DNA from: Candidatus Dormibacteria bacterium
GTDB taxonomy: Bacteria; Chloroflexota; Dormibacteria; Aeolococcales; Aeolococcaceae
Length of the DNA: 64,000 nt
Assembly: GCA_050734185.1 (NCBI GenBank)
Contig: JBOHUE010000157.1
Location: 1,430-65,429 of the forward strand
Direction: 5' to 3'
Numbering within the stretch: position 1 is the stretch's first letter; every line of letters starts with the position of its first letter. Positions 39,618 through 55,778 of this stretch are shown here, in pieces. The notes below the pieces were generated by a model that saw only the letters and a program-made list of their open reading frames with translations, was not told the DNA's origin and did no database searches. The position numbers and the translations under genes are program-made.

Positions 39618-40422
39618 GCGTCAGCCTCCTACGATCCTCGCGTCCGGGCCACGCGGTCGGTCATACCGCAAACGATCGTCCCTGCGTCAGCGCCATCGGG
39701 CCTGGCCCTGAGCTTGTGGCCCGTGCGGACTCGGCGTTAGTGGGCTCGAAGCGTGGTATCGGGAGGGACCATCGCAAGCTTGCGATCTGGGGATCGACTG
39801 AGCGAGTGGAGGATGAGCACGGCCGTACCGCCGCTGGGCCGTCCTGACGGCGCCGGCAAAGCTGCTGTCGTCGATGTCTGGGAGAAACGCACCAGGTTGT
39901 TCAATCCGCTAAACGGACGCCGCTGAAAAGGCCCAGGAGGCTCGGAACGAGGACGAGTCCATGTCACAGACCTTGGCTCGGCGGGCCCTGTCCGCTCGCG
40001 CCGGACAAGCGGTCAGCATCCGCGATGACACGGCACTGGGTGGAACCATCACGTAGTCGTGGGTGGGCCTATCGGCTGGCGCTCGACATTGCTGCGTGAG
40101 CTGGCGGAGCTCTACTCCGGCCTCGACCGTAAATCCGCACCGCCTCCCGCTATAGGAAGAATTCGCTTCTTTTCCATTAGTCGACCCTCCGAGGCGAGAA
40201 TCCATAGCGGGGCGGTCGCAGGGAGACCAGACTCCCTCCACTGGGGGCTGTTTGCGCCGCGCAACAGTGGCCCTGGCAAGCCGGCCCGCCAACCAGGCCA
40301 TCCACACCCAGGCGGGCGCCCAGGACCTGCGCGACCACAAAAGAAGCGTTGCTACACGAACGGGTGTTCGCTTATCCTAGCGGTGCCTAGCATCCAGCTT
40401 TGGAGACGTCACTTTTCTTGCC

Positions 40423-41997
40423 ATGACCCCGCTTCCGCCTAACTACTCGCCAGAACTAATCTTCGGAGTAATCGGACCTGCTGGCGCGGACCTGGGTGGA
40501 GTCAGCACAGCTCTTGAGAATGAGTTGCAGCGATACCGATACAAGGCGAAGATCCTGCTGGTAAGTGACCTTTTTAGGTCGCTTCCTGGCTTTGATCACC
40601 TGGGTGGAATCACTCGACCACGAGGCCTGAACGACTATGAGGTCCTGATGTCGGCGGGCGATGCCATAAGACGTCGAGCGAACCGGAAAGACGCCGCAAT
40701 TCTCATGGCCCTAACTAGCATCATCGATTCGCACGGCGATTGGACGAAGGAGCCGCGAGACACTGCCTGGATTCTGAACTCAATCAAAACTCCTCAGGAA
40801 GCGGACCTACTCAATGTCGTATACGGTGGACGCTGCTGGCTGTTATCAGTGTTTACGAAGCGAGAGAGCCGTATTCAGCAAATAGCCGACGAACTCGCGA
40901 GGCAGCGCGGAGGCACCGTCGGGAGAGTGGAGACTCAAGAAGCGGCCGACCTTGTGGAACGCGACGAGGGCGGTGTCACCATCGACGAATTCGGTCAGAA
41001 CGTCGGGGAAGCCTTCCCGCTCGGCGACTACTTCATAGACGTCGACAGAGACGACTTACAGGCACAGTTGCAAAGGTTTCTTCGCCTTGTCTTTGCTGAC
41101 CCATTTATGACGCCACAGCGCGATGAACAACTCATGTTTGTCGCGTACGGAGCTGCAATGCGTTCGGCATCGCTTTCCAGGCAGGTGGGGGCGGCGATCT
41201 CGGTCGAAGACGGCGCCATCGTCGCCATTGGGGCAAACGAAGTACCTAAGGCCGGAGGTGGTCAATATTGGGCTGAAGACTCCAATGCGAAGGCGACTGA
41301 TGATGGCAGGCAATTTCGACAGGCAGAGGATCTGAGCGAGACAACGAAGGACGCAATGGTCCGCGAGCTGCTGGCCTCAATTGAAGAACTACTCAAGGAT
41401 CCGGTTGATTCAGTTTTCGCGTCGCTTGATCGCAAGAAGCTTCGGGTGTTTGATCTCCTCGAGTTCTATCGTGAGATGCATGCGGAGATGGCCGCGGTCA
41501 TCGACGCGGCTCGCCGAGGGGTGTCAATTCGCGAGGGCACGTTAGCCACTACAACCTTCCCCTGCCACGACTGCGCTAAGCACATTATCGGGGCGGGCAT
41601 TAGACGCGTGCTCTTCATACAGCCATACGTGAAGAGCCGAGCGGCTGAACTCCATCGCGACGCACTAGTTATAGGTCATGAGCGCCCGATAGACGTTATA
41701 TTTCAGGGCAACCCCGTGACCTTCGAGACGTACCGCGGGATAGCCCCCAAACGCTACATCGAAGTCTTTCGAATGCCGGCCCGAAAGGTGGCTGGGACTC
41801 AGGTCACCTGGCGCGAAGGCGTTGCCGAGCCACGCACTGGGTTGCTGGGATCGAAGCTAACGCAGTTTGAGGTTGTAGAGGCAGAGCGTGCTGGACAGTG
41901 GTCAGGAGTTGTGGTGCGCGAGCAAGTTTTGGGAAAGAGACTACCCACAATAATCAAGGCCTTAGAGGAGGCTATCAATGCAGAACGGACCACATGA
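40423..41997 (+). CDS. AvcD/DCD-like anti-phage deoxycytidylate/dCTP deaminase (N-terminal CMP-kinase-like domain with degenerate P-loop + C-terminal zinc deaminase)
   Basis: C-terminal CDA/dCMP-deaminase zinc motifs HAE (aa 353-355, nt about 41479) and PCHDC (aa 380-384) preceded by VGAAISVEDGAIVAIGANEV. N-terminus IFGVIGPAGADLGGVSTAL resembles the cytidylate-kinase P-loop IxGPAGxGKST but lacks the Lys. Lower GC than flanks. Confidence 0.65.
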   Translation: MTPLPPNYSPELIFGVIGPAGADLGGVSTALENELQRYRYKAKILLVSDLFRSLPGFDHLGGITRPRGLNDYEVLMSAGDAIRRRANRKDAAILMALTSIIDSHGDWTKEPRDTAWILNSIKTPQEADLLNVVYGGRCWLLSVFTKRESRIQQIADELARQRGGTVGRVETQEAADLVERDEGGVTIDEFGQNVGEAFPLGDYFIDVDRDDLQAQLQRFLRLVFADPFMTPQRDEQLMFVAYGAAMRSASLSRQVGAAISVEDGAIVAIGANEVPKAGGGQYWAEDSNAKATDDGRQFRQAEDLSETTKDAMVRELLASIEELLKDPVDSVFASLDRKKLRVFDLLEFYREMHAEMAAVIDAARRGVSIREGTLATTTFPCHDCAKHIIGAGIRRVLFIQPYVKSRAAELHRDALVIGHERPIDVIFQGNPVTFETYRGIAPKRYIEVFRMPARKVAGTQVTWREGVAEPRTGLLGSKLTQFEVVEAERAGQWSGVVVREQVLGKRLPTIIKALEEAINAERTT

Positions 41998-42286
41998 GAC
42001 TCTGTCGACCCCGGACGCGGGTGGCGAAGCGGTAACTCGAGTAGGAACGCGAGCGCAACAGGCCAGCGAATCGTGGCCCGATTGGTTGAAACGTGCGGTT
42101 GAGTCACACGAGAAAGCATTCGAGAGTGAGAAGAAGCGCAATGGCGACGGAGATAGCTCGGGAATGGCTTAAATGTTGCCCGTTTGCTTCCCTTACATAG
42201 AGAGACCGCCCCATCGGAGCGCCTTCGTCCGGTTACGCGGCGCGGATCGCTGCTGAGCCGCTAGGCGTGCACCGGGAGAGAGAAGA

Positions 42287-43729
42287 ATGCGATTTAGCGA
42301 GTACTTCGGCGTCGCTGCCGCCGGCGTGGAGTGGTACGACCCAGTACTCACTGAGGACACTCCACTATATGTGGACCCGTTTCTTGTCTACGAAGATGCT
42401 GATCCTTTTTGGGCCAGCTCACATGACATCGTTGTCGAGTTCTTTGCGACCGCGCTGGGGCTGGTCCGCCGTGCGCCCGATAGGCGCCAGTCCGTGCATT
42501 GGCGCAAGGCGGAAAGACTTCTCACGTTCCCGGAACCCAAGGAGTTCGCGCTCGGCCTCGCTATGGGGACACCGGTTGGGTCAGGCACGGGAAGGGAATT
42601 CGCGCATGTCATGGCAGGGGCGTTGGGCGTCGTCGCCGGAAGCGGCATCAGTCAGGTCGAGTTTGTAGAGCTGTTCACGCTCTTTGCGCAGGGGCTGGGC
42701 CCCGATCGGATCAGCGATATCCTCTGTAACATCCTCAAGGCGCAGTTCATCGGCTACACACAGTCGATTGCGAAAGAGTTGGGGATTCAGTTATCGCCGA
42801 TACCGACCCGACACGTCAGGTGGAGCGCTGCGAGCACGCGGTGGGAGGACGGACTGTGTCTTCTGCCGCTAAGCCCGGTCACCAACGCAGGTATCCTCTT
42901 AACGCCGCATCGCTTCCTCAAGAACATCCCAACCGTAACGGCTCTGGGCTTCTGGAATTGGGCTGAGACGAGTGCCAGCCAAATTCTCCGCGACGACCTC
43001 AACTACGACCTCGCCGAGCATCTAAGCCGAAGCGAGCGGGAGAGGCGCGCCCGCGAGCTTGCGCATCTACGGCCGCCCCTGGCGCTTAGCTATCTGCAGC
43101 ACGTGGCGGAGGATGTCGAGCACGCTCCATACAATGTTGAAGACGATCCCGACCTACTAGTTGGTTGGCACGAGGCCGGTCGGCTCGCATTCGATCCTGG
43201 CTTGGCGCCAGATGGAGATCCACCGGAGGCTGACTTCTGCATTTGGGTAGGTGATCTGCTGGATCGCTTTCGGCATGCCGTAGAGGAAACGGATTTGTGG
43301 CGCGTGCTATGGAATGACGCTTTGACGAAGCCTCGAGCTGAGAAGATTGTCCAGGCGGTTGCAGGAAGTGTTCTGGCTCCCTACTGCGAAGCCGCTGATG
43401 TTGACCTATCGCGTGAGGCGAATATCGGTCGCGGCGCGGTCGATTTCAAGTTCGCTCGAGGCTGGAAGAAGCGCGCTCTCACGGAAGCTAAGTTGATATC
43501 AAGCAGTCATTTCGACAAGGGAGCCGGAAAGCAACTACCTCAGTATCTGAAAAGTGAACGCATCGAGTGCGGGTACTATTTGTGTGTTGGATTCTTCAAC
43601 GGCGATTTCGAAGGCGATCGCCTATCCAGAGTTACTGAAACGTGTCGGGTGTTATCCGAGCAAATGGGACGTCCGATAGCTCCAGTCATCGTTGATGCTA
43701 GACCCAAGGAATCCGCCTCAAAGTTGTAG
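42287..43729 (+). CDS. hypothetical protein, possible C-terminal PD-(D/E)xK nuclease fold
   Basis: 480 aa, no recognised family; C-terminal GAVDFKF...ALTEAKLIS fits a D...ExK nuclease core; island codon usage. Confidence 0.5.
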   Translation: MRFSEYFGVAAAGVEWYDPVLTEDTPLYVDPFLVYEDADPFWASSHDIVVEFFATALGLVRRAPDRRQSVHWRKAERLLTFPEPKEFALGLAMGTPVGSGTGREFAHVMAGALGVVAGSGISQVEFVELFTLFAQGLGPDRISDILCNILKAQFIGYTQSIAKELGIQLSPIPTRHVRWSAASTRWEDGLCLLPLSPVTNAGILLTPHRFLKNIPTVTALGFWNWAETSASQILRDDLNYDLAEHLSRSERERRARELAHLRPPLALSYLQHVAEDVEHAPYNVEDDPDLLVGWHEAGRLAFDPGLAPDGDPPEADFCIWVGDLLDRFRHAVEETDLWRVLWNDALTKPRAEKIVQAVAGSVLAPYCEAADVDLSREANIGRGAVDFKFARGWKKRALTEAKLISSSHFDKGAGKQLPQYLKSERIECGYYLCVGFFNGDFEGDRLSRVTETCRVLSEQMGRPIAPVIVDARPKESASKL

Positions 43730-43758
43730 TCCTCCACACGGAGCTCTCCGTATCCATA

Positions 43759-43802
43759 CCGCGTTGGCCATTACATCGCACCGCGTTGGCCATTACATCG
43801 CA
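43759..43802. repeat. perfect 22-bp tandem direct repeat x2 (CCGCGTTGGCCATTACATCGCA)
   Basis: Seen directly, 30 bp after the stop of 42287..43729. Confidence 0.8.
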
Positions 43803-43980
43803 GCGGGATGCTGCGATAACGGGCTCGCAAGTTTGATGGGGCTTGGCTACTTTGGCGTTGGTCGAGGCCACAAGTGCCACCACGGCGTCGGTTAGCTGAG
43901 CTCCTCGGTTGTCCACGGGCCTGCTCGTCGAGACGCTCGACGCACTCTCTGGGCTCGGCTAGATTCAGCTAGAGGAGGCT

Positions 43981-44010
43981 GTGTGATAAGGCCGCGGCGC
44001 CTCATCACAC
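43981..44010. promoter_or_regulatory. 30-bp near-perfect palindrome GTGTGATAAGG-CCGCGGCG-CCTCATCACAC (candidate operator or terminator)
   Basis: 11-bp arms with 1 mismatch around an 8-bp CG loop, about 100 bp upstream of the first HNH gene. Confidence 0.4.
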
Positions 44011-44107
44011 CCATGTTCGTCGATTGGCCCCTCTAACCCATCACGAATGAGGCGCCGGGAATCCGTCGTAGGCGTTCGGGAGGGGCCCGTTTGCCGTCGC
44101 GTCATCC

Positions 44108-45082
44108 ATGACGCTTGACCAGCTTCGGTGGCATAGTTGCGCATACTTCGGGATGGCCGCTCAATTCGCTGACGAGCCGGTGCGCTCCGCCGCCTTTGCA
44201 TTCCTCGCCGACCAGGCGCGGATCCGCGATCAGCCGTGGCCGCCTGTACTTCCACGGTCCCTCCTGCAAGCTGGCTTTGAGTTTGGCGGTCAGCGGGTTC
44301 CGCTCGTCGGCCCGCAGGGGATCTTCAAGCCGGCGGCGCTCCCCGGAACGATCCCACTCAGCATCACCACGGCTCCACCGGTGCTGCATCACGATGCCCC
44401 ATACGACGACGAGTTCGGGTACGGCCACCTCGTCTATCGCTATCGCGGCATCGATCCAAGCCATCACGAGAACGTGGGGCTGCGATCCGCGATCAAAACG
44501 CAGACGCCGCTGATCTACTTCCACGGCATCGTTCCCGGTTCCTACCTCGCGACGTGGCCGGTGTATATCGTGGGAGATCGTCCCGAGCAGTTGGCGTTTA
44601 CGGTTGCTTTCGAGCCGGGCGCTGTCGAACGGCTTCCTGAGGCGCAGCTCATGGAAGAAGACGCGAGGAGGGCATATGCAGAGCGCCTCGTCTTGCAGCG
44701 CCTCCACCAGGCTGGGTTTCGTGAGCGAGTACTGACTGCGTATCGGCGGTGCTGCGCACTGTGTCGGTTACGACACGCACCGTTGCTCGACGCGGCCCAC
44801 ATCATTGCGGACGGCCGGCCACGCGGAGAGCCGGTAGTGAGCAACGGCCTGGCGCTTTGCAAACTCCATCACGCGGCATTCGACGCGAACATCATCGGGA
44901 TCCGGCCGGATCGCGTTGTCGAAGTCAGGCAGGAGGTCCTTAGTGAGACGGATGGCCCGATGCTCGTCCACGGCTTGCAAGAGGTCCACGGGTCGCGGAT
45001 CTGGACGCCGCGTTCACCGGAGCTGCAGCCAACCGCGGCCCGACTTGAGGAACGCTATGAAGAGTTCCAGAAGGCCGGGTGA
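44108..45082 (+). CDS. HNH endonuclease (PF13391-like) with N-terminal reader-like domain; type IV restriction candidate
   Basis: HNH motif CALCRLRHAPLLDAAHIIA...NGLALCKLHHAAFD; N-terminal about 190 aa of unknown or PUA-like fold. Confidence 0.7.
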   Translation: MTLDQLRWHSCAYFGMAAQFADEPVRSAAFAFLADQARIRDQPWPPVLPRSLLQAGFEFGGQRVPLVGPQGIFKPAALPGTIPLSITTAPPVLHHDAPYDDEFGYGHLVYRYRGIDPSHHENVGLRSAIKTQTPLIYFHGIVPGSYLATWPVYIVGDRPEQLAFTVAFEPGAVERLPEAQLMEEDARRAYAERLVLQRLHQAGFRERVLTAYRRCCALCRLRHAPLLDAAHIIADGRPRGEPVVSNGLALCKLHHAAFDANIIGIRPDRVVEVRQEVLSETDGPMLVHGLQEVHGSRIWTPRSPELQPTAARLEERYEEFQKAG

Positions 45083-46020
45083 CAATGGGGCGCGTGTTCG
45101 TCGCCGTCACCGACTACGACTGGTATCGGAAGCTGCGGCAGATCCCCGATGTCGACGAGGTGAACTTCTGGCAGCCCAGCGGTGGTCGGAGATTCGGCGC
45201 AATCGGGGTTGGCGAGATGTTCCTCTTCAAGCTGCACGCGCCCTACAACGTCATCATTGGTGGTGGTTTCTTCGCACGCCACACAACGCTTCCGCTCCAT
45301 TTGGCCTGGGAATTCTTTGGGCTCAAGAATGGCGCAAGCAGCGAGGAGGAAATGGTCGTCAGGGTGGCACGCTACGTTGATAGCCTCAAGGGCGTGTCGG
45401 CGCTGCAGCGGAGCAAACACCCGATCGGCTGCGTGCTCCTCGAGCAACCGTTTTTCTTCCCAGAGACCGAATGGATTCCCCAACCCGCAGATTGGGCCCG
45501 GAACATCGTGCAGGGCCGCGGTTACGACCTCGCCGAGGCGACGGGCCAGAGCCTGCTAACAAGCGTCAGCGAGCGCTTGGCAGGTGAGTCCGTTGTGCTG
45601 CTTGATGAGGCGACCGGCCGGTACGGAGCACCAACTCTGGTGCGCCACCGCCTCGGACAGGGATCGTTCCGCGCTGCCGTGACTGACGCCTACCACCGTC
45701 AATGTGCCGTCACCGGAGACCGGGTCCTCTATGTGCTCGACGCGGCTCACATCCGGCCGTTCGCTCGGGGTGGTGAGCACAGCGTGAACAACGGGTTGCT
45801 TCTTCGGAGCGACCTTCACACGTTGTTCGATCGCGGGTATCTGGCGGTCGACCCACAACATAGGGTCCAGGTGAGTCGCCGGCTGCGCGAGGAGTTCGAC
45901 AACGGGAGAGAGTACTACGCACTGGAAGGCCGTCGCCTGCTCCTGCCGGCGGAGCGCGTCGACCTCCCCGATTCCGGTTTGCTGGCTTGGCATCGGCACG
46001 AGGTCTTCGTCGCTGCGTGA
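45079..46020 (+). CDS. EVE/PUA-like-domain HNH endonuclease (PF13391-like); type IV restriction candidate
   Basis: ATGA overlap with the upstream HNH gene; N-terminal EVE-like FWQPSGG...GEMFLFKLHAPYNVIIGGGFFA; HNH motif CAVTG...LDAAHIRPF...NNGLLLRSDLHTLFDRGYLAV. Confidence 0.7.
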   Translation: MTMGRVFVAVTDYDWYRKLRQIPDVDEVNFWQPSGGRRFGAIGVGEMFLFKLHAPYNVIIGGGFFARHTTLPLHLAWEFFGLKNGASSEEEMVVRVARYVDSLKGVSALQRSKHPIGCVLLEQPFFFPETEWIPQPADWARNIVQGRGYDLAEATGQSLLTSVSERLAGESVVLLDEATGRYGAPTLVRHRLGQGSFRAAVTDAYHRQCAVTGDRVLYVLDAAHIRPFARGGEHSVNNGLLLRSDLHTLFDRGYLAVDPQHRVQVSRRLREEFDNGREYYALEGRRLLLPAERVDLPDSGLLAWHRHEVFVAA

Positions 46021-46102
46021 CGTGCACACCTTCCGCGATGTGGAGGCACTTGGGAGGATTTTCCAGGCTCGTCCCGACTTTAGTGGAGTCACATTCTTGG
46101 AC

Positions 46103-46411
46103 TCACGCTGCCGTCGTAGGCTGATGCTGAGCCTCGAACTCGACTGGCGTCAGCAAAACCAGTGACATATCGTGGCGCTGGCGGTTGTGGAAGATCTCCA
46201 GGTACTCGAAGATCACGCTTGCGAGCTCAACCGGCGTCGACCAACCTGGCCAGGTCGCTTGAGCTGGTGCAACTCCGGCCGTGCGGACCCAGCAAGTGCG
46301 GGGTGTTACGCGTTCTCCAGCGCCGGGAGTGTTTCCACCACCACCTCCGTCGACCGTTGCGTCAGCTTGGCCACTGACCCGCCGCTGAAGTAGCGGCGAC
46401 GAACGGCACAT
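46103..46411 (-). pseudogene. IS3-family transposase (integrase core) C-terminal fragment
   Basis: IFEYLEIFHNRQRHDMSLVLLTPVEFEA matches the conserved C-terminal tail of IS3 OrfB (IFEYIEvFYNRxRRHSxLGYxSPxEFE); no upstream catalytic region present. Confidence 0.5.
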
Positions 46412-46775
46412 TCATCGTGCTGCTCCTTGAGCACGGCACGGACCAAGCGCAGCAACGAGTGGCGGTTGGAAACATGCCGACCACGTCGCAGCGTCGGCTG
46501 ACCTCCTAGTTAAGCCGCTCCGGGAGTTCGTGGACCAGATCACGCGGCGGTGCCCGACCGGGAACCCGTAATACGCGAGCACGTCGTCCTGGGCTGCCCC
46601 GGGGCACGTCACGAGCTTGGCGAAACGCTTCTCGAAGAGCCTGCACACGCGACCAACGGCGGCTTTTGGCTGTGACGCGATCGGGTGGGCAAAGAGGGTG
46701 CGAATCGTGGCGGCCGACATCCGGTGCGCAGCCTTCCGAACGGTGGCCAACGCGTTTCTCATGACGTGCACGGCC
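46412..46775 (-). pseudogene. IS256/Mutator-family transposase internal fragment
   Basis: VHVMRNALATV...LAYYGFPVGHRRVIWSTNSRSGLTRR matches the IS256 conserved block (CxVHxxRN...FPxxHWxxxRTTNxIE); truncated at both ends. Confidence 0.5.
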
Positions 46776-46857
46776 GCTCGGCCACCTGGCCCCGACGAAC
46801 ACCTACCGAGAGACGACCTGTTGACCCTGAACGAGCACTCTGGAAACATCCCGTCCG

Positions 46858-47452
46858 AATGGACATTGACGAAGTTCAACGATCGAGAGCGATCGCACGA
46901 CTTGGCAAGCTTGGCGGGTTCGCTCCCCCGGCTGGCGAAGCCCTCGTCGATGCCGCCATCGCCGGCGCTATCGACCATGCATTTGAGTTGATTAATGGCT
47001 CGGGCGCTGTTCCGACGAGCATGACAACTAGTAAGGCTGACCAGCTGCGTTTCATCTGCGAGCGCGCGGGGCGCCTCTTGTCCCAACGGGAGGTGGAAAT
47101 TCTGTTCCGCGTGACAGCGACAGCAGCACGAACGATCCTGACGACAATGCTCGCCACGTACGAGGAGGCTCTGCGTGAGAAGTTCGTGGCGCGCATGCGT
47201 AGCGATGCGCTGGTAGAACCCAGCGGCAGCGACGATGCTGGACTAAGCTGGACGCTGCGATTTACTGAGTCGGGCACTCTCGATACCGCCTGGAGTGAAG
47301 TCGTTCGACTTGGCATCGCAAGTCTTGGTGACATCAGCTCGTCACGGCGAACACTGACGATTCCTCGTAGCGCCACCATCCAGGGTGAGTCTATTGACGT
47401 TCTCGCCGCGCTTGGGCTGGAGCAACCAGCGACGCGTCCATCAAGGCGGTGA
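46858..47452 (+). CDS. hypothetical protein (island cargo)
   Basis: 198-aa ORF from ATG at 46858 with island-like (lower GC) codon usage; no recognised domain; partly overlaps the upstream part of the IS256-fragment ORF, which is non-homologous. Confidence 0.35.
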
Positions 47453-47793
47453 ATTCTCTCGCTGACCAGATCGGGCAGGCCGGTAGTCTGCTAGGTTTGC
47501 TGTTGGCGCTCGACACGCTATTTACCGCTGTCCAAGCACAGGCGCTCGCTGACGAACGGAACCACGAGGGTGGGGCAAGGCCTAAGCGCGTGAGAACCAT
47601 TCGTACTATTGCTATCGGTCTTGCAGTCGTTACGGTTTCAGCACTCGTCGCGCTATTTCCCCTCGTTCGAGATGTCTTGGCTACGATTGGCACCGGCAAT
47701 TGGGAGCCCGTGCTAGGCGTTTTCGATCTCACATGGCTCCTCCTCGCCGCACTCGCTATCTGGCAAGGGTGGATTGCATTGAGAAGCGGGTAG
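47449..47793 (+). CDS. small two-TM membrane protein
   Basis: GTG start overlapping the upstream TGA; two hydrophobic helices (LLGLLLALDTLFTAV, IAIGLAVVTVSALVALFPLV). Confidence 0.35.
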   Translation: MNSLADQIGQAGSLLGLLLALDTLFTAVQAQALADERNHEGGARPKRVRTIRTIAIGLAVVTVSALVALFPLVRDVLATIGTGNWEPVLGVFDLTWLLLAALAIWQGWIALRSG

Positions 47794-48314
47794 GCGTGGA
47801 TCCCGCCAGAGCCGATCGATGCCACTCCACAGCCCGAGACGCACGCCGCTCGGAGAGGTTGAGTTCTCCCGCGCGGACCACGGCTCACGCCGGCGGGTCG
47901 GGCTCACAAGTTGGCCCGTGCTACCTCGCGCAGTACCTCAAGGTCGAGCGCCTGGTCGCGACAGCTTGCGCAACCAATCGGCGTCGTCCGCCTTCATGCC
48001 GCCGTATTAGTTGCGCCAAGTGAAAAGTCTGCTCGCTGATCTCCAGCGTCGTCGTCACACCCGCAAATGACACGAGCGTCGGCCAGCAGCCGGTCACGCC
48101 TCCCTGAGTCTGCGCACGATCTGTTGTGTTGTGTGCTTGCGCCCTTTACAAGTGGTTTCTGCTTGCCCTTGTGGGCCTACGAGAACTCTCGTATCAGGTG
48201 GACCGACGTCAGGGGTCGGGCCACAGGGTCCAATGCATGCAAGTGACTGGGCTATCGTAGCGTGAGGGTGTCGCACCCCGAACGTTGCGTGTGTGAGCGC
48301 GCAACGCCGCGCGA

Positions 48315-48715
48315 ATGGATGATTGGCTCAGGAGAGTCGGAATGACTGGTCTGGAATGGCAGCGAGAGCCGGGCGTCTATTTCATTTACGACGTAGGGAA
48401 CGATCGCGTGAAGATTGGATATGCGACGGATCCGTACGACCGCATGACGACGCTGAAGACCGGAAATTCACAACAGCTCTTGCTCCTTGCTGTTGCAGTG
48501 CGAGAACGAAACACGATGAGCGTGCTTACCACGCTCAGTTCGCTGGCGATCTGGTCGAGGGGTCGCGCGAGTGGTTCAAGCCCAGTGGGCGGCTGAAGGC
48601 GCTCATCGAAGCCGTACAGCACAATTACGGCAACCATGGCGCCTATCCAGCCCCGTCCGGCGGGTTGCTTCGCTATCGCGTGCGGGGCGGCCCCGACGGA
48701 AGGCAGCGTCGCTAA
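48315..48715 (+). pseudogene. T5orf172 / GIY-YIG-like domain protein, frameshifted
   Basis: N-half in the frame of 48315 (GVYFIYDVGNDRVKIGYATDPYDRMTTLKTGNSQQLLLLAV). C-half (ERAYHAQFAGDLVEGSREWFKPSGRLKALIEAV) continues in the frame of track ORF 48323..48715. Shift lies at about 48490-48510. Confidence 0.55.
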
Positions 48716-49332
48716 GCATGGCCGGGATGGTTTCGAATCACCTCAGGCGCGTTTGGTACCGCGAGGCCGGGAAAATGTCCTCTGAACCTCCCGGGCAATA
48801 CTGGGACTCCTTCACGCCAGGAGGAGGATCTCGCGAGCGGACCGCATGCTTGCCGGTCCGCTCGTCCTTGAGAACCCCGCCCGGTATCGGGCAGCGCTCA
48901 TTGCGCTCCTCACACCCAACCAGGTCGAACCGGATGCCACCCTTGCACAGGCCGAGTCATCACAGCTGTATGCGCAGACGGCCGCGCTGACCGCGGCGGC
49001 AACTAGGACGCCCGCGTACGACACCTGCGTGCCCCTTGCAAACCGCGTCGAATCTGCCGCGCCCGAACAGATGGCTGCGGTCGAAGGCAGCTTCGCTCCA
49101 GCGGCGGCGTACGGCACCGAGACGCTAGACATGTTCTGGAGGGCCGGTGGTAGAAGCTCAAGTCGACCCAGTTGTTGGACACGCGGTGGGCGCTAGCGCC
49201 TCTGGAGTCGCGCGGTAGCGGTTGGCCAAGGTGCGTGGGCTGGTCGCTTCGTGTTACCGACGAGCATGCCAAGGTACGCTGCTTCACGGCCACCACGATC
49301 CAGATGGGAGTCGCGAGGCGGCTTGACCATCG

Positions 49333-52300
49333 CTACCCGGCGTTGAGATTACCGTGAGTCTGGCGACGGCCGAACGTCGCGTGATCTCGCTTGCTGGCCG
49401 CCCGCCAGCCAGACACTCGCATCTTCCCCACCGGCGCTTGACGAAGCTGTGGGTCGCGCACCGGATTGAAGACTGCCGTTAATTCGGGAATCCCGCCGTC
49501 GGTGAGGTGCTCAACGACGTAGACCCAGTAGTCGGCACCGAGCTTGGGATCTAGCGCAACCTCCCACTCACTCGTCTCCAGGATGAAAGCGTCCGCTGCG
49601 AGTCCTCCGGACGCTTTCAGTTCGATGTAGCGGCCATCGCTCGCCACGAAATCGGCTCCCACCAAGGGCCCCTGTCGGTGCACGACGAAGCCGCCGCGCG
49701 TTGCCTCGAACATCTCGACGTATGGACGAGCGGCATCCTCGACAGCAGTGTTCGGAGGGATTGGAGTAGCGTCATCGCGGGCTTGACTCGGTCGGTCGGA
49801 CTCCGGGCGCGGCTTCCGGCGACGCGCAGTCCTTGGGAGCTCCCGCACCGCCTGAGACCCCAGAGCGTCATGCTCGGTGCTCTCGATCGACAACAACTCG
49901 AAGGAGGAAGGGTCGGCAAACGTACGCTCCACATGTGATGGTCGCCTAGTTTCCGTGGACGTCCGTGAGGAGCCTGGGGCTGGCCGTGTTGCCTGTCGGA
50001 TCGCATCAATAGCAGCCTCAACATCGTCTGCATCGTCATGATCGCCCTCCGCTCCACCGAAGCCCGCTTCGACTGAGAGCACGCCTACGCTGGTCTCGTA
50101 GCGCTCGATCCGCTTAGCGAAAGCCTCGGGCGATCGGAAAGCTTCTCCAAGCAGCGCCGCCAGCGCGTTCGTCGCGGCGAGTTGTCGCCGCTGAACGAGG
50201 GAACCGAGTATTTCTGCGGCTGTGTGACCGAATACGTCAGCTGATTCCACCCCGACAAGTACTCCGTCTCGAAGCAGCACCCGCGGCTCGGTGTGCAGTC
50301 GAATGTTTCCCTGGTCGGGGAGGCGAAGGACCAATCGGCCTTCAATCTTCAGTGCAGTTGCCGGCTGAAGACCCGCCGCCCCTGCGGCGAGATTGGCAAT
50401 CACGGCGCGATCCCAGCCCCCTTCGGACCGAAGCAACTCTGGCCATGCGCGGACGGCAGCCAGCCATCGACCTCTGAGATCCGCGCTGAGGTCTCCTCCG
50501 GCCACGACCAGCCACTGTTCCTCAAGGACCTCTCCCGGTGTCAACTCCCTGACGGCGAGCCAACGGGCTGCGGTTCCCACGACGGAGGCGTCGTACGTGC
50601 CGGGCAACCACCACGCAAGGTGAGTCTGGAGGGCGGACCGAATCTCCGGCCGGGCAGTCCACCAAGCCTGGTCGGCATCAAGCCAGCCGCGGTCTGTCAG
50701 TGCCGGCACGCCTGCGGGTCCGGCGCTCCCATGCGACACGACAGACTCTAGTCTCACGACCAATTCCCCATAGAAGTGGCGTGCGATCTCATCAACTGGG
50801 CTAGCCGCCATTTCGTAGCGAATGATGTCCGCCATCATCTGCGGATCGAGGTCCGCTCGCACGCCCAACGCGTCCCAAAGTGTGGCGGATCTCGGATAAC
50901 GTCCGGCGAGCTGCCCAACGAACGGGCCGGCGACAGCAGACACGTCCGCTCGCACCGTACGAACCGGTGACCACCATTCGTTGCCGATAAAATCACCCGG
51001 GGGCGGGGCGAAGATGAGGCCGACGCGGCCATTCCCGTGGAACTTAGGCCGGATAAGCAGACGAACCAGATCGGCACGCGCGGAGTTCGGCAGTGCTGTA
51101 AGTTCGCCAGCTATGAGCTCGTAACAAGCCCCGGCTGCGCGCCGACGCTGATCGACTGTGAGTTCTGGAGCTGTATCGCGGAGCCGCTGCAAGGTTGAGA
51201 TAAGGCGGTGCGGCGCGGGTCGTTCGGCGATGCCGATGTCATCGAGCATCGCGTCTGGCTGACTAGGCCAACCTAGGACCGATGCGGCTTCGCTCGCCAA
51301 GGCGAGCTTCGTTGCAGGACTACTGCGAACGAGATCCTTGGGCTTCTGCAAGGATCGGTCCAGCGCGCCGACCCAAGCGATCGACTCGAGCAGTCCCACC
51401 CACGACGACGCTACCTGAGGCGGGTCAGGGATCCAGTTGTAATAGAAATGCGCCGGCGTGGTCTTGCTGGTCGGCGCGATTCGGCCCCAATCCGCCTGGA
51501 GTACAGTCCACAGGGCTCGAGCTCGTCGCCCGCGTTGACGCGTCGACAGTGATGGCCACCGATCTACCAACCACGTGAGGTCGTCGGAAACCCAATCGTC
51601 GATGACACCGGTGGGTCGGGTCATCGCGCTTGAAGGCCAGACAATCCACGGCATCGTCCCGCGTGCGATCCTCGTCACGCGGCGTCCGTCACCGACGGCT
51701 TCGCCGATTCGCGGGCTGATGTAGGGACCAACCAAGCCCCCCAGGAATCGCAAGAACTCGGGAGGGGACATCTGCGCTCGAGCCCCCCGCTGGATACCTC
51801 GACCTCTCGGCACCGGGATCGCGTGAGTGTGGATCTCGTCGACAATCGCTCGGTCAGGCTTTCCGTTTGTCACGGCTTCCATGCCGTCCTGGCTGAGCAT
51901 GGCCGAGCTCAAATATGTTCTTGTGAGCGGTCGAGCGACAAGTCGTCGCGATCGCCCTTGACCAACGACGGCAGCGACGCGGAGACTGTCGCCCAACTGG
52001 CGCGCGATCATGGCTTCGTCTTGAGCGCGATGTGCCCGGCGATAGTCGTTCACGAAGCCTCGCCATCGATGCCTGATGAACTCGACCATCCGAAAGAGCT
52101 GTTCCCGCTGCGATTCATCGATGTGATCAAGCTTCGCTAAGGCGGCCATCCGGGGAACGACCAGGTCTGTGACGACGTGGTATGGGCCAGCCTGAAGCGC
52201 TACTCGGAAGGGCTCCTGCGACAACATATCGCGGACCCGCACGCGCATATCGCCTTGGTCCCGTCCGCGGCGCCGAGCCGCAAGCACACCCGGGGCTGGA

Positions 52301-54051
52301 TCGAGGAACGGATCGACAAGGTGGATCTCAGACTCATTGAAGTACCGCCGCAAGTCGGTGAGAGTTGCGGAGCGTGAGTACCCAAGCAGGTAGCCAGTGA
52401 GCGCAATACGTGGAGAAGGCCGGATCCGACCGCCATGCTCGATTGGTATGCATGCCGTCGATGCGATGGACGCGCGCTCCTCTTGAGTCGCCGTGGTCGC
52501 AACTAGGTCCAGCGCTCGAAGCCACCACCGTCCGTCGCGACGACCGAAACGGAGGTCATCGAGCCTGAGCAGAGCGAGCAGGTCTGGGAGCGCCACTGCG
52601 CGACCTCCCAGGGTGCCAACGACCGAATGCATCCTGCGCTCGTCACTTGACCCAGTGGCTGGTGCAGTTGCGGGAGCGACATACGAGACAGCCGTGCCTG
52701 TCGCCAAATGCAGGTCCGTTTCTCGGATGACTTCACGGAACGCCTCGTCTGGAGCCCACACAGCGGCAGAGGGTACCCGCCAACCCGCGACCGTGCGAAC
52801 GAATCGACGGTCGCGAAGCTGGCTCATCGCTACGTCAAACGCACGGTGCTGGAGGGAGCCGGGAGCAACCTCTGACGCGAGAGGGATGAGTGGCCACGGG
52901 GGTTGACCGGAACGGGATTCAGCTTCTATCGCCTTGGCGATGACATTGCCGATCTCAGTCAACAGCCAGCGATTCCAGTCATTCTCACGGAGTCGTTCGC
53001 GTCCAGGTGTTGGGTCGAAATCGGCTTGCACAAGCCAACGCAGTTCCGATGTGACATCTAGGGGCAGAAAACAGTGCAGCTTCGTGGGGCCGACCGAGCG
53101 ATCAATGGGCCGTGCGAGAACGATTGTCGACGTCTCGCCCGCCTGAACTTCCCGGCCTTGGCGTGCCAATCCGCGCGGGACCGCAGACGTCGAGTACCGA
53201 TATCGTCGCCAAGCCTGTTGCTCACAGCCAGGCCACGATCCGCCGATGCGACACTCGTCCCAGCCGCGCGTCCGGTTTGAAACGCCTGAGCGCCGATAGA
53301 ACTGGCCGCGGCCGCGTCCGGTGACTCGATCAATAATGACGATAGATTCCAGGCTGTCGAGCGTCAACAACAGGTGCAGGAATTCAGGCCTGGTTAAGTC
53401 CTCGATGATCGACGCCAATCGACCACGCTCCGAGGGTCGTACATGCAGCGTGAAATGAGCGCCACGAGGCCGGCGCGGCGGGAGCGGAAGCGGATCGGGA
53501 TAGATCTTGTCCTCAATACGAAAGGCGTACGAGCCTGACTCAATCTGCGGCGAATCAGTCAGCTTAAACACGGACTTGAAACCGATCCCGAAGAATCCGA
53601 TCTTGTTCTTCTTGGGACTATGCCCGGCCGAGCAGATTGCCCATACGTCTGGGGCCGAGAATGCCTGACCATCGTTGTGTACGCGGACCTCATCAGGCTC
53701 AAATAGAAAGAGTATTCGCCGCGCTCCTGCGTCTTCGGCGTTCTGGATCAATTCCAGCGCCCAATGGATGTCGCGCCCGTACAGCTGCTCGGACGCGATC
53801 GACAGGAGCGGACCAAGGTCGGGACTGCCGCGAAATTCTTCTTTTAGCGACCGAACTGCGCCGACGAACGTCTCATTCCAGTTCGGGTCGTCCTCCGGCA
53901 ACGATTCGACAGGGAGCCGCCGAGCCAGGCGCTCGACGGCATTGGCGGCGGCAGCCCGAAGTGAATCCACACCGGGAGAGGGTTCATGGACACCGCGGAT
54001 ACTGGCGCTCTTGGAGCGATTCGGGTCGATCAGCGTGGCGGTGGCCTCCAA
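49333..54051 (-). CDS. giant (1572 aa) sacsin/MORC-like GHKL ATPase with C-terminal DUF3883 / PD-(D/E)xK-like nuclease domain; defense-island protein candidate
   Basis: N-terminal HATPase_c_3-type N-box ELIQNAEDAGA and G-boxes KIGFFGIGFKS; C-terminal GADFVASDGRYIELKASGG...FILETSEWEVA...YWVYVV fits the DUF3883 GYDIxS...IEVKxT...lSxNE pattern. Confidence 0.75.
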   Translation of the reverse strand: MEATATLIDPNRSKSASIRGVHEPSPGVDSLRAAAANAVERLARRLPVESLPEDDPNWNETFVGAVRSLKEEFRGSPDLGPLLSIASEQLYGRDIHWALELIQNAEDAGARRILFLFEPDEVRVHNDGQAFSAPDVWAICSAGHSPKKNKIGFFGIGFKSVFKLTDSPQIESGSYAFRIEDKIYPDPLPLPPRRPRGAHFTLHVRPSERGRLASIIEDLTRPEFLHLLLTLDSLESIVIIDRVTGRGRGQFYRRSGVSNRTRGWDECRIGGSWPGCEQQAWRRYRYSTSAVPRGLARQGREVQAGETSTIVLARPIDRSVGPTKLHCFLPLDVTSELRWLVQADFDPTPGRERLRENDWNRWLLTEIGNVIAKAIEAESRSGQPPWPLIPLASEVAPGSLQHRAFDVAMSQLRDRRFVRTVAGWRVPSAAVWAPDEAFREVIRETDLHLATGTAVSYVAPATAPATGSSDERRMHSVVGTLGGRAVALPDLLALLRLDDLRFGRRDGRWWLRALDLVATTATQEERASIASTACIPIEHGGRIRPSPRIALTGYLLGYSRSATLTDLRRYFNESEIHLVDPFLDPAPGVLAARRRGRDQGDMRVRVRDMLSQEPFRVALQAGPYHVVTDLVVPRMAALAKLDHIDESQREQLFRMVEFIRHRWRGFVNDYRRAHRAQDEAMIARQLGDSLRVAAVVGQGRSRRLVARPLTRTYLSSAMLSQDGMEAVTNGKPDRAIVDEIHTHAIPVPRGRGIQRGARAQMSPPEFLRFLGGLVGPYISPRIGEAVGDGRRVTRIARGTMPWIVWPSSAMTRPTGVIDDWVSDDLTWLVDRWPSLSTRQRGRRARALWTVLQADWGRIAPTSKTTPAHFYYNWIPDPPQVASSWVGLLESIAWVGALDRSLQKPKDLVRSSPATKLALASEAASVLGWPSQPDAMLDDIGIAERPAPHRLISTLQRLRDTAPELTVDQRRRAAGACYELIAGELTALPNSARADLVRLLIRPKFHGNGRVGLIFAPPPGDFIGNEWWSPVRTVRADVSAVAGPFVGQLAGRYPRSATLWDALGVRADLDPQMMADIIRYEMAASPVDEIARHFYGELVVRLESVVSHGSAGPAGVPALTDRGWLDADQAWWTARPEIRSALQTHLAWWLPGTYDASVVGTAARWLAVRELTPGEVLEEQWLVVAGGDLSADLRGRWLAAVRAWPELLRSEGGWDRAVIANLAAGAAGLQPATALKIEGRLVLRLPDQGNIRLHTEPRVLLRDGVLVGVESADVFGHTAAEILGSLVQRRQLAATNALAALLGEAFRSPEAFAKRIERYETSVGVLSVEAGFGGAEGDHDDADDVEAAIDAIRQATRPAPGSSRTSTETRRPSHVERTFADPSSFELLSIESTEHDALGSQAVRELPRTARRRKPRPESDRPSQARDDATPIPPNTAVEDAARPYVEMFEATRGGFVVHRQGPLVGADFVASDGRYIELKASGGLAADAFILETSEWEVALDPKLGADYWVYVVEHLTDGGIPELTAVFNPVRDPQLRQAPVGKMRVSGWRAASKRDHATFGRRQTHGNLNAG

Positions 54052-54908
54052 GCGATATGCGCGAGTGCTAGGGCCTTTCGATGAGAGATGTCAAGCGATC
54101 ACACAACAAGCCCTCGCCCTCCGCATCCGCCACATTCGTCGCCAAGTTCAGGAGCGTTATACCGTCCGCGGCTCGGTCGGTGCGCGCGGGGCAGCCCACG
54201 GCTCTAAGCGCGCACCAAATAGTGCACAGAGTTGAGCACGGAAAGTCCACAGCTCTGATTGACGGGGACCATAGCCTTCCCCCGGTGCCCCGCTGAGCCG
54301 TGCACATCGCGCGACCAGTAGCGGTCCGTTGTTGGTCGACGTACTTGCTCATCGCGGTTGCCGCGGGTCGAGCTCCCGCGCGGAGAAAGCTGACGCCGAC
54401 TTGAGGATCTCCTTGGCTCGGGTGCAAATCGCTGTTCTCTCGCTCGAACTGTGCGATGCGGAGGTCTCTTCCGTCGTGGTCCCGGTGCGCTTCCCATCAT
54501 CCATCTCGGCTTCGTTAACCCAGGTGCTCGACGACTCAGCGTCAGGGCCCCATTAATTGGCGACGCGGCTGACACTCCCGAAGCGCTCACGGGACTGCTC
54601 ATATGCCTGGTGGGACCATCCGGATCCCCCCTCTCTGAGCTTAGTGATGCGTCCGCGCGCTCCGAAGTATTGGAGCTCACCTAACCTTCGGGGCCAAGGC
54701 ATCGCGAATCTCCGTATCGCGCCAGTTCCAGAGCTTGGTGGCCGACGCGCACCTAGCTCCGATGCCAGCAATCCTTATGCCGCGATTTGGCCGCACCCTC
54801 TACGTGACGGGCCAGCGACCGCTGAAGACGCCCCAGGCTTCCGGCGTCCCGCGAGCATAGACTCGCATCCTGGGCGGAGCGGGACGTCCGAAGACGAGGA
54901 GTGTCGCG

Positions 54909-55778
54909 ATGGCAGCTGTTGCACCGGTTGAGGGCATCGACGCAATGTCGTACGTCACGGTCGGGGTCGAGAACAGCACCCCGATTCGGATCCACTACGA
55001 GGATCACGGCAGCGGTCAGCCGATCGTCCTGATCCACGGTTATCCGCTCAATGGGGAGTCCTGGGAGAAGCAGGAGCGTGCGCTGCTGCCCGCCGGCTAC
55101 CGCGTCATCACGTACGACCGCCGCGGCTTCGGCGCGTCGAGTCACCCCACCGTGGGCTACGACTACGACACGTTCACCGCCGACCTCGACGCGCTGCTCG
55201 ACCACCTGCATCTCGACAATGTCGTCCTCTGCGGGTTTTCCATGGGCACCGGTGAGGTGACGCGCTACCTCGGCACCCACGGATCAGCGCGCGTGCGCAA
55301 AGCCGTGCTCATGGGCGCGATCCCGCCCTTCCTGCTGAAGACTGCGGACAACCCAGAGGGCGTCGACGCTTCGGTCTTCGACGGCATCAAGGCACTGGTC
55401 CTCAAGGACCGCTACCTGTGGTTCAAGAACTTCTTCGACAACTTCTACAACACGGACGTGCTGATGCCCGAGCGCATCACCGAACAGGCATGGCAGGCAA
55501 GCTTCAACCTCGCGTGCACCGCGTCGCCGTACGCCAGCTACGCGTGCGTCGACACATGGCTCACCGACTTCCGCAGCGACCTGCCGAAGATCGACGTGCC
55601 CACGCTCGTGGTGCACGGCACTGCCGACCGGATCCTTCCATTCGAGGCGACGGCGAAACGCCTGCCGGCGCTGATCAGGGGCGCGCGTCTGGTCGCGGTC
55701 GACGGCGGCCCGCACAACATCGCATGGACACACCCCGATGAGGTCAACGACGCGCTGTTGACGTTCCTCGCGGAGTAG
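54909..55778 (+). CDS. alpha/beta hydrolase (non-haem haloperoxidase/esterase-like)
   Basis: HGYPLNG and GFSMGTG (GxSxG nucleophile elbow); C-terminal His/Asp region VVHGTADRILP. Start may be the internal ATG at 54945. Confidence 0.9.
   Translation: MAAVAPVEGIDAMSYVTVGVENSTPIRIHYEDHGSGQPIVLIHGYPLNGESWEKQERALLPAGYRVITYDRRGFGASSHPTVGYDYDTFTADLDALLDHLHLDNVVLCGFSMGTGEVTRYLGTHGSARVRKAVLMGAIPPFLLKTADNPEGVDASVFDGIKALVLKDRYLWFKNFFDNFYNTDVLMPERITEQAWQASFNLACTASPYASYACVDTWLTDFRSDLPKIDVPTLVVHGTADRILPFEATAKRLPALIRGARLVAVDGGPHNIAWTHPDEVNDALLTFLAE

Follow-up and report, generated by a model that had tools for sequence, protein, structure and literature searches.

A DUF8370-DUF8371 protein as a candidate single-polypeptide immune nuclease in a low-GC island of a Dormibacteria bacterium

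The gene and its place in the window

The window analysed here, a stretch of 64,000 nucleotides from a Candidatus Dormibacteria bacterium, carries on its + strand a complete open reading frame of 480 aa with an ATG start (42287..43729, stop codon included), and the ORF listing confirms it as it had been described in the original prediction. Its upstream neighbour on the same strand encodes an AvcD-like dCTP deaminase of 524 aa (40423..41997). A spacer of 289 nt (41998..42286, + strand) lies between the deaminase stop and the start of the 480-aa gene, and most of the length of a 64-aa ORF (41978-42172) falls inside it. The surrounding island has a GC content of 0.57-0.64, compared with 0.67-0.72 in the flanks. 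It holds IS remnants, and no convincing att-like repeats or tRNA were found at its edges.

A purine-rich, Shine-Dalgarno-like stretch read from the sequence, GGGAGAGAGAAGA (42274..42286, + strand), directly abuts the ATG. The identical MAG protein has been called at NCBI as 452 aa, versus the 480 aa used here. Judged by residue conservation, the start used here is the right one and the NCBI call is too short: it begins downstream of the conserved R2, F3, W16, D24, P26 and L27. That residues 2-27 are conserved in the homologues speaks for the ATG at 42287. A consensus scan of the spacer revealed neither a sigma-70-like promoter on the + strand nor a terminator-like site, and the counts of promoter and terminator sites in this region are not above those of shuffled sequence. 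Since the scan gave none, a transcription separate from that of the deaminase is suggested by the comparative data only.

Domain composition and effector exchange

Precomputed matches to Pfam PF28123 (DUF8370) and PF28130 (DUF8371) exist for the exact 480-aa protein (Logan contig), for a 100% identical NCBI protein (P0001) and for all 120 homologues listed. The order in which the matches are listed suggests DUF8370 as the N-terminal part, and the C-terminal nuclease domain presumably corresponds to DUF8371. Scans of the 480-aa protein with NCBIfam and with a local Pfam-A copy, which does not hold these two models, gave no match. Altogether 236 homologues of about 480 aa each were found, and DUF8370-DUF8371 proteins of this size form over 1000 sequence clusters from eight or more phyla. 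PHROG 30194 aligns end to end (residues 3-479 with 10-476 of 478, E 1.1e-47), and PHROG 27295 matches as well, the common part being the core of the N-terminal domain (residues 1-215). In the PADLOC scan, the match to PDC-M36A is confined to the N-terminus (residues 2-219 with profile positions 7-218 of 457, E 2.9e-22) and does not extend over the full profile; a second model covers residues 131-218.

The protein had been introduced as a member of an unknown family. This holds insofar as no function is attached to it: DUF8370, DUF8371 and PHROG 30194 are placeholder entries without one, and a literature search for PDC-M36, PF28130/PF28123 and DUF8370/DUF8371 found no mention. The family is nevertheless catalogued, as DUF8370 + DUF8371, as PHROG 30194 and N-terminally as PDC-M36A. 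The suggestion of a new defence component thus overstated the novelty, with the N-domain already in PADLOC and both domains present as Pfam DUFs. A PDB sequence search with the single protein returned nothing; the sole PDB match of a 42-sequence profile, Schlafen-12, was dismissed as insignificant (E=1.2).

The C-terminal block had been read as a PD-(D/E)xK core, and both the alignment of homologues and the structure match show it to be genuine and conserved. The nuclease domain covers residues 346-480 (43322..43726, + strand), with the motif block GAVDFKFARGWKKRALTEAKLIS at residues 383-405 (43433..43501, + strand). Its predicted structure displays the alpha-beta-beta-beta-alpha-beta core fold of the PD-(D/E)xK superfamily, and core strands 2 and 3 bear the D...(D/E)xK catalytic residues. 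These residues, encoded on the + strand as D386 (43442-43444), E400 (43484-43486) and K402 (43490-43492), are invariant across 42 homologues. Of 85 divergent representatives, 66 retain D386 (five more carry E), 74 retain E400 and 78 retain K402, and the complete set E352/E377/D386/E400/K402 is intact in 62. The original prediction was to be given up if the protein proved homologous to a metabolic enzyme family or if its putative catalytic residues were not conserved; Pfam, NCBIfam and PDB sequence searches gave no metabolic enzyme, and the residues are kept in homologues.

On the helix that follows the ExK strand, Q416-L-P-Q-Y420 (43532..43546, + strand) forms a QxxxY-like motif, which we take to resemble that of the RecB/Cas4 family. 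Q416 and Y420 are invariant in the 42 homologues and kept in 67 and 71 of the 85 representatives, respectively. The C-terminal tail D470-A-R-P-K-E-S-A-S-K-L480 (43694..43726, + strand) is conserved and predicted to be disordered, with pLDDT <50 at residues 478-480. D470 and R472 are invariant in the 42 homologues, in which K474, S476, A477 and S478 are at least 90% conserved; in the representatives, S476 occurs in 59/85, A477 in 61/85 and S478 in 65/85. The closest structures are Type II enzymes of the BamHI / BstYI / OkrAI / BglII group, at 7-13% sequence identity.

The N-terminal ~345 residues yield a confident structure model, which matched no solved structure and none of the known DNA-reader folds (SRA, PUA/EVE, winged helix, DUF262). 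Near-invariant positions of the conserved core (residues 1-215; 42287..42931, + strand) are D24, D30, P31, E83, G90, G98, G100, D140, S143, D144, Y157, T158, W186 and P207. The core is joined to the nuclease by a more variable helical region (residues 219-340; 42941..43306, + strand), in which Y282 and D287 are near-invariant. D24, P31, G90, G98, D140, D144 and P207 occur in all 94 near-full-length representatives, E83, G100, T158, Y282 and D287 in 93 and D30 in 91, values that are partly inflated because the representatives were chosen by N-domain similarity. The acidic and glycine-rich putative site of the N-domain resembles the active site of an enzyme more than a typical, fast-evolving sensor surface, so that to speak of a control domain may undersell it.

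A phmmer search with the N-domain returned 1338 representative clusters at E<=1e-3, and in every one of them this domain is N-terminal. The DUF8371 nuclease follows it in 84 of the 94 near-full-length representatives. P0246 joins the N-domain to PNP_UDP_1, a PNP-type phosphorylase, without the nuclease; P0244 and P0262 carry an additional TIR, P0210 an additional EAD1+CHAT and P0208 an additional EAD1; and in the PDC-M36A-type protein a different D..ExK module follows. The catalytic positions of the nuclease are decayed to N/K/Q in P0210 (EAD1+CHAT), and the TIR forms show D386->I and K402->R (P0244) or E352->Q and E400->L (P0262), while all N-domain signature residues are kept in the TIR and CHAT forms. 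As read from these sequences, the N-domain stays constant while the effectors joined to it are replaced. DUF8371, in turn, is found without this N-domain: in a plasmid protein of B. thuringiensis it follows an unrelated N-terminal part. EAD1 has been described as an adaptor that brings effectors to other core systems (PMC7159879), and so the whole protein may, in some lineages, act as an effector that is recruited, and not as a sensor-effector working autonomously.

Neighbouring genes and genomic context

The protein had further been proposed as a partner effector or sensor of the deaminase. We sampled the neighbourhood of 81 loci and searched the flanking ORFs within 8 kb of 80 homologues for relatives of the window's deaminase. 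None was found (BLASTP E<=1e-3), nor did one appear in ten further annotated contexts; an Amycolatopsis homologue has a DCD-type dCTP deaminase about 4.6 kb away, which belongs to a different Pfam family. The most widespread neighbour family is present in at most 13 of the 81 loci, the larger clusters being shadow ORFs of the 480-aa gene itself, and every family among the 134 nearest neighbours occurs at most four times. Neighbours vary in size, strand and distance, with gaps often of 100-600 nt. The notion of a two-gene system in which the 480-aa protein is the second component, effector or sensor, beside the AvcD-like dCTP deaminase is largely refuted by these co-occurrence data and can hardly be upheld. 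It could draw on the adjacency of the two genes on the same strand of the same low-GC island and on the lack of a terminator-like site between them in the scan, against which stand the 289 nt that separate them and the models of the anti-phage dCTP deaminase in PADLOC and NCBIfam, which describe a self-sufficient single protein.

Other candidate partners were rejected as well. The downstream HNH genes have an HNH2-like counterpart near just 2 of 80 homologues, and a 313-aa gene directly downstream of homologues is restricted to 11 loci of one subclade and absent from the window by profile search. A cognate methyltransferase of the kind expected in a classical Type II R-M system does not flank the 480-aa gene in the window. 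The gene has no obligatory partner and stands solo in most loci.

By raw count, defence or mobile-element genes occur in 13 of 14 annotated contexts; the Amycolatopsis context is the one without them. In the window itself, the dCTP deaminase, two HNH_2 genes and a Tiamat-like TmtA are present. The other contexts comprise Wadjet JetABCD; AIPR with CTD10/MC6; NB-ARC, HNH and an integrase fragment; HEPN-helicase, SRA-McrA, Schlafen-type helicase + MazG and AbiEi/Eii; LmuB_C, MC3/CTD7 and caspase-EACC1; the cargo of an actinomycete integrative conjugative element (RepSA, FtsK/SpoIIIE, excisionase); a Type ISP R-M system beside SmpB; Shedu SduA_C; a plasmid with SIR2, DUF3427 and GIY-YIG; a Gabija-like TOPRIM + UvrD pair with an integrase; an MTase-helicase-GIY-YIG operon with a distant homologue as its last gene; and Tn3 cargo on pSmeSM11a, beside Tn3/IS256 transposases. 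The bulk scan of the 134 nearest neighbours also shows housekeeping genes; integrases account for four of these neighbours, and some homologues lie on small plasmids.

These contexts, from Wadjet, Lamassu-type, Shedu, AbiE, SIR2 and Gabija-like genes to Type ISP R-M, NB-ARC, CTD/MC conflict genes and mobile elements, fit the other option of the original prediction, an independent restriction-like or defence enzyme, as do the fusions to TIR, EAD1-CHAT and PNP_UDP. For the annotation of this genome, the island at 40-55 kb is a set of several independent defence genes (the dCTP deaminase, the 480-aa nuclease, two HNH enzymes and the Tiamat-like TmtA) and not one composite deaminase system.

Interpretation and comparison with known systems

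We consider it probable that the 480-aa protein is a self-contained, single-polypeptide immune nuclease, directed against phages or mobile elements, and that the low-GC defence island carrying it was acquired horizontally. The basis of this candidate assignment is what we observe here: the nuclease fold, the conservation of the catalytic residues, the absence of an obligatory partner, the defence or mobile-element context in most of the loci examined and the exchange of effectors in relatives. We infer from it a DNase activity and its autoinhibition, and likewise the nature of the trigger and the mode of action, direct restriction versus abortive infection. The C-terminal ~135 residues would be the effector, a Mg2+-dependent PD-(D/E)xK endonuclease in which D386 and E400 bind the metal and K402 positions the attacking water, with E352 and E377 as putative auxiliary carboxylates and Q416/Y420 as putative phosphate contacts. 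The N-terminal ~340 residues (DUF8370) would be the constant control module of the family, whose near-invariant acidic, glycine-rich site would most likely bind a cue, be it a metal-nucleotide or a nucleic acid, or perform chemistry of its own. This module may hold the nuclease silent until infection, whereupon invader DNA, host DNA or both would be cut.

A more far-reaching reading is put forward only tentatively. Here DUF8370 would be a hitherto unrecognised immune control domain of a new fold, driving killing modules that can be exchanged for one another (PD-(D/E)xK DNase, TIR, PNP-type phosphorylase, EAD1-CHAT protease), and its acidic, glycine-rich pocket would bind or process a nucleotide or nucleic-acid cue derived from infection. 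The DUF8370-DUF8371 proteins would then make up a widespread anti-phage system of a single gene, new both as a system and in the chemistry of its sensing. Single-polypeptide sensor-nuclease proteins are already a known kind of bacterial immunity. In this family the constant part is a large domain without a solved structural relative, with enzyme-like invariant residues and with at least four immune effector classes attached. If the protein is protective, it would offer a compact 1.4 kb system in which a regulatory fold and a trigger or ligand, both new, could be discovered, and it would provide a function for two Pfam DUFs and one PADLOC candidate.

Unlikely in our judgement is a solitary restriction endonuclease, Type IV-like (modification-dependent) or orphan Type II-like, which would cut directly without activation of the abortive-infection type and use its N-domain as a DNA-recognition or NTP-binding module, by analogy with GmrSD/BrxU. 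It would agree with the closest structures, which are those of genuine Type II enzymes (BamHI/BglII group), and with the lack of a cognate methyltransferase (C5-MTase, PF00145, in 2/134 nearest neighbours), as expected for Type IV. The two HNH_2 neighbours in the window, which resemble phosphorothioate-DNA-dependent restriction enzymes, the MTase-helicase-GIY-YIG operon that ends in a distant homologue, and the embedding of PDC candidates in BREX, DISARM and Type I R-M loci (bioRxiv 10.1101/2024.01.29.577857) point the same way. However, the N-domain matches no DNA-reader fold and no solved structure, and the swap or addition of TIR, PNP_UDP and CHAT together with nuclease-site decay is typical of sensor-effector immune proteins and hard to reconcile with a role in the cutting of recognised DNA only. 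Quite improbable is a non-immune DNA-processing nuclease serving mobile elements in maintenance, entry exclusion, recombination or addiction, and present in defence islands only because these double as cargo zones of mobile elements. The homologues in an actinomycete ICE, on pSmeSM11a, on small plasmids and beside integrases (4/134) are compatible with such a role, and so are the IS remnants in the window's island and the matches to PHROG 30194 and 27295. Yet there is no steady association with one element type or recombinase, tblastn of the 480-aa protein against 50,697 phage genomes gave no match, and the TIR, CHAT/EAD1 and PNP_UDP fusions are characteristic of conflict systems rather than of genes that maintain an element.

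The immune nuclease that we favour can be set beside several known systems. Enzymes of the BamHI / BstYI / OkrAI / BglII group lack a 345-residue N-terminal domain, unlike the 480-aa protein, which in turn has no partner methyltransferase and shows a classical ExK together with the QxxxY-like motif, whereas BamHI carries ExE and BglII ExQ.

PDC-M36, with PDC-M36A as its protein A, stems from a 'guilt-by-embedding' screen that also recovered BrxU; it is the nearest catalogued relative of the family, is among 145 candidates stated as untested and is given in the supplement as a three-gene cassette, FAM_01399>>FAM_00303>>FAM_00303 (bioRxiv 10.1101/2024.01.29.577857). The N-domains of PDC-M36A and the 480-aa protein are homologous, and a D...ExK module likewise forms the C-terminal end of a PDC-M36A-type protein encoded on a Bacillus mycoides plasmid. 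The nucleases of the two are of different subfamilies ('IDISF...FVECKNY' versus 'VDFKF...TEAK'). The three-gene cassette was not seen in the window, where the gene is solo and PDC-M36 models matched none of the seven neighbouring proteins scanned.

Type IV enzymes of the GmrSD / BrxU / SspE type combine an N-terminal DUF262 NTP-binding domain with a C-terminal nuclease. A functional analogy is possible, in that a conserved, probably nucleotide- or metal-binding N-domain would control a C-terminal nuclease, and a further likeness is the solitary occurrence in or near R-M/BREX-type loci. The 480-aa protein differs from these enzymes in lacking the DGQQR motif and in having PD-(D/E)xK instead of a His-Me finger; the folds are unrelated, and the corresponding models in Pfam and PADLOC gave no match to it.

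Shedu (SduA, DUF4263) is a defence nuclease that consists of one protein, in which a variable N-terminal region for regulation or sensing precedes a C-terminal PD-(D/E)xK domain. A Shedu gene lies near one homologue. The Shedu models in PADLOC and DUF4263/SduA_C in Pfam gave no match to the 480-aa protein. The likeness is at the level of architecture, namely one polypeptide with an N-terminal control region, a C-terminal PD-(D/E)xK effector and residence in defence islands. In the DUF8370 family, however, conservation lies in the N-domain and variation in the effector, opposite to the arrangement in Shedu.

The gene, its family and its nuclease domain

The gene under study (42287..43729, + strand) has an ATG start, encodes 480 aa and begins 289 nt after the stop codon of the upstream dCTP deaminase gene. 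A purine-rich stretch, GGGAGAGAGAAGA, lies directly 5' of the ATG (42274-42286). The start of the 480-aa version is correct, because homologues conserve its first 30 residues (R2, F3, W16, D24, P26 and L27). For an identical protein of a Candidatus Dormibacteria MAG, the NCBI call of 452 aa starts 28 codons too late (window 42287-42370); judged by the alignment, this call is too short and cuts off conserved residues of the N-terminal domain. At 29 nt past the stop codon, within the 378-nt spacer to the first HNH gene, a 22-nt unit (ACCGCGTTGGCCATTACATCGC) is present in two perfect tandem copies (43758-43801).

Scans of the protein against a local Pfam-A copy and NCBIfam gave no match; two newer Pfam families, PF28123 (DUF8370) and PF28130 (DUF8371), are assigned in precomputed annotation to the identical protein and to all homologues listed. 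PHROG 30194 matches from end to end (E 1.1e-47), PHROG 27295 over the first ~200 residues only, and PADLOC PDC-M36A (457 positions) partially, with residues 2-219 aligned to positions 7-218 (E 2.9e-22). The PDC set comprises 145 'phage defence candidates', all of them untested, which go back to genes nested within BREX, DISARM and Type I R-M loci (bioRxiv 10.1101/2024.01.29.577857); PDC-M36 is a three-gene cassette. A literature search for these Pfam and PDC identifiers found no mention of them. The family is thus catalogued and functionally blank, with a partial relative among the PADLOC candidates.

A database search returned 236 relatives, of which the 120 listed are mostly ~480 aa long, a few reaching 628 aa; all named ones are 'hypothetical'. 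The original prediction had read a D...ExK block (residues 383-405) as a possible PD-(D/E)xK core, and this assignment holds. Across 42 aligned homologues that share 46-59% identity with the protein, D386, E400 and K402 are invariant, as are E352, E377, Q416 and Y420. In the confident AlphaFold2 model built from this alignment (mean pLDDT 84.8, pTM 0.77), E352 begins helix 352-369, D386 begins strand 387-391, E400 and K402 lie inside strand 395-403, and Q416 and Y420 sit on helix 409-423, a predicted layout that corresponds to the textbook PD-(D/E)xK arrangement. The core E352/E377/D386/E400/K402 is intact in 62 of 85 far more divergent representatives. Neither homology to a metabolic enzyme family nor unconserved catalytic residues, either of which would speak against the assignment, was found. 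The last residues (D470-A-R-P-K-E-S-A-S-K-L480) show strong conservation, yet are predicted to be disordered; a tail that autoinhibits the enzyme or contacts another subunit is conceivable, as is a degradation signal.

A conserved N-terminal domain and its effector modules

Residues 1-240 were searched against 1.84 billion representative proteins, yielding 1338 clusters at E<=1e-3 and 531 at 1e-10. Of the 150 matches listed, only a handful have the N-terminal domain (N-domain, presumably DUF8370) starting more than ~30 residues into the protein, and proteins of 450-500 aa are the most common. Conservation counts come from 94 near-full-length representatives with 27-56% identity across this region; these were chosen by similarity to the N-domain itself, and the counts are to be read accordingly: D24, P31, G90, G98, D140, D144 and P207 occur in all 94, E83, G100, T158, Y282 and D287 in 93, D30 in 91, and S143, Y157 and W186 in 89. 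Several carboxylates and a glycine-rich loop, the only low-confidence part of the AlphaFold2 model, resemble a site for catalysis or for metal/nucleotide binding.

A DUF8371-type nuclease follows the N-domain in 84 of the 94 representatives. Other modules are seen among the remaining and the longer proteins. In P0246 (734 aa) the N-domain is followed by a PNP_UDP_1 phosphorylase domain, without a nuclease. A TIR domain is added in P0244 and P0262, EAD1 plus CHAT in P0210, and EAD1 in P0208; PMC7159879 describes EAD1 as an adaptor that recruits effectors for conflict systems. In the TIR and CHAT proteins all signature residues of the N-domain are retained and the nuclease sites are degenerate (D386->N, E400->K and K402->Q in P0210; D386->I and K402->R in P0244; E352->Q and E400->L in P0262). 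Three further proteins point the same way: in a PDC-M36A-type protein of Bacillus mycoides another kind of D...ExK module is attached to the N-domain, an Acinetobacter plasmid protein of 314 aa is the N-domain alone, and a B. thuringiensis plasmid protein carries the DUF8371 module after an unrelated N-terminus. These architectures are most simply read as a control domain at the N-terminus that stays constant while the killing module is exchanged; in our protein that module is a predicted nuclease with all catalytic residues present.

Genomic surroundings and candidate partners

Gene and deaminase are part of an island of ~15 kb with lower G+C (window ~40000-55500; 0.57-0.64 versus 0.67-0.72 on either side). 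Its edges carry no tRNA, the sole one in the window being tRNA-Lys at 23816-23886, and a search of the flanks for direct repeats gave none that was convincing. The 524-aa deaminase (40423..41997, +) matches the PADLOC anti-phage dCTP deaminase (E 1.9e-131) and scores 361.8 bits against NCBIfam NF041025 'anti-phage dCTP deaminase', under the curated cutoff of 400; by these profiles it is a divergent anti-phage dCTP deaminase. Its stop codon is overlapped by a 64-aa ORF (41978-42172, +), which is called as a gene where this sequence was assembled independently. Downstream, two tandem paralogous genes with a 4-nt overlap (44108-45082 and 45079-46020, both +) each encode a C-terminal HNH_2 domain. 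Both domains resemble phosphorothioate-DNA-dependent restriction endonucleases, and the N-terminal ~190 residues of each protein are unassigned. Three small features at 46103-47086 (-), 46685-47793 (+) and 48315-48596 (+) comprise remnants of insertion sequences (a Transposase_mut fragment), two uncharacterised ORFs of 255 aa and 114 aa that overlap each other, and a fragment with weak T5orf172/GIY-YIG likeness. A TmtA (Tiamat)-like protein of 1572 aa (49333-54051, -; full-length PADLOC match, E 5.5e-105) carries Sacsin-type and NOV_C domains and is a further independent defence gene of the island.

Including this window with its deaminase, HNH_2 genes, IS remnants and TmtA, 14 annotated contexts were inspected. 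Homologues lie near a complete Wadjet operon (Kribbella); AIPR and CTD10/MC6 conflict genes (Longispora); NB-ARC, HNH and an integrase fragment (Cnuibacter); HEPN-helicase, SRA-McrA, Schlafen-type helicase with MazG, and AbiEi/Eii (a metagenome contig); LmuB_C, MC3/CTD7 and caspase-EACC1 (Streptomyces); Shedu SduA_C (a second metagenome contig); SIR2, DUF3427 and GIY-YIG (a Rhodobacter plasmid); a Gabija-like TOPRIM and UvrD pair with an integrase (a Bacillus mycoides plasmid); an MTase-helicase-GIY-YIG operon (a Paenarthrobacter plasmid); and Tn3/IS256 (pSmeSM11a). The Lentzea homologue sits within an integrative conjugative element, that of Clavibacter adjoins SmpB and has a Type ISP R-M in its vicinity, and Amycolatopsis shows no evident defence gene. 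Defence or mobile-element context was thus seen at 13 of 14 loci, as a raw count. No match was found in 50,697 phage genomes. The setting is therefore that of an independently mobile gene of defence islands.

Partners were sought in 80 loci of relatives (29-56% identity) from Actinomycetota, Bacillota, Bacteroidota, Pseudomonadota, Acidobacteriota, Ignavibacteriales and Nitrospirales. When the flanking ORFs were clustered all against all, each neighbour family was present in at most 13 of 81 loci; larger clusters consist of shadow ORFs of the gene itself. The nearest neighbours have no constant size, strand or distance (gaps usually 100-600 nt), and a Pfam scan of the 134 nearest substantial ones found no family more than four times. 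C5 methyltransferases occur only twice among them; there is therefore no cognate methylase. A relative of the window's second HNH protein is near a homologue in only 2 of 80 loci. A gene for a conserved 313-aa protein lies 18-62 nt downstream of the homologue only in 11 loci of one apparently Micrococcales-centred subclade (L011:9481-10422, L085:9445-10386, L087:9467-10408, L098:9486-10427, L099:9546-10487 and six more). This protein has no Pfam or PADLOC match, its gene is absent from the window, and its role may be that of an accessory, or of a second component, specific to the lineage. In the loci examined, the nuclease protein itself has no obligatory partner.

Proposed mode of action and relation to known systems

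We consider it probable that the protein is a partner-free immune protein whose nuclease is controlled by the N-domain. The N-domain would hold the putative DNase in check and release it once the domain's conserved pocket engages a cue that arises from infection, possibly a nucleotide, a metal-nucleotide or a nucleic-acid feature; upon activation, invader and/or host DNA would be cleaved. Our confidence in any one particular trigger is much lower than in this overall picture.

The main rival reading takes the protein as a solitary restriction enzyme, Type IV-like or orphan, whose N-domain reads DNA directly. The BamHI-like fold of the nuclease, the lack of a methylase and the R-M-type neighbours speak for it, but the TIR, PNP and CHAT substitutions in relatives and an N-domain without any known DNA-reader fold make it unlikely. 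A housekeeping role for a mobile element, which the plasmid and transposon settings bring to mind, appears less likely still. Partnership with the deaminase, one option of the original prediction, is highly improbable, as the co-occurrence check found no deaminase relative adjoining any of the 80 homologues; the other option, an independent restriction-like defence candidate, stands.

The novel conserved N-domain and the clear effector replacement make the protein a good experimental candidate. Compared with known systems, it is a putative single-polypeptide immune protein of control domain plus nuclease, a known kind and not categorically new in type; the N-domain is its novel, highly conserved part.
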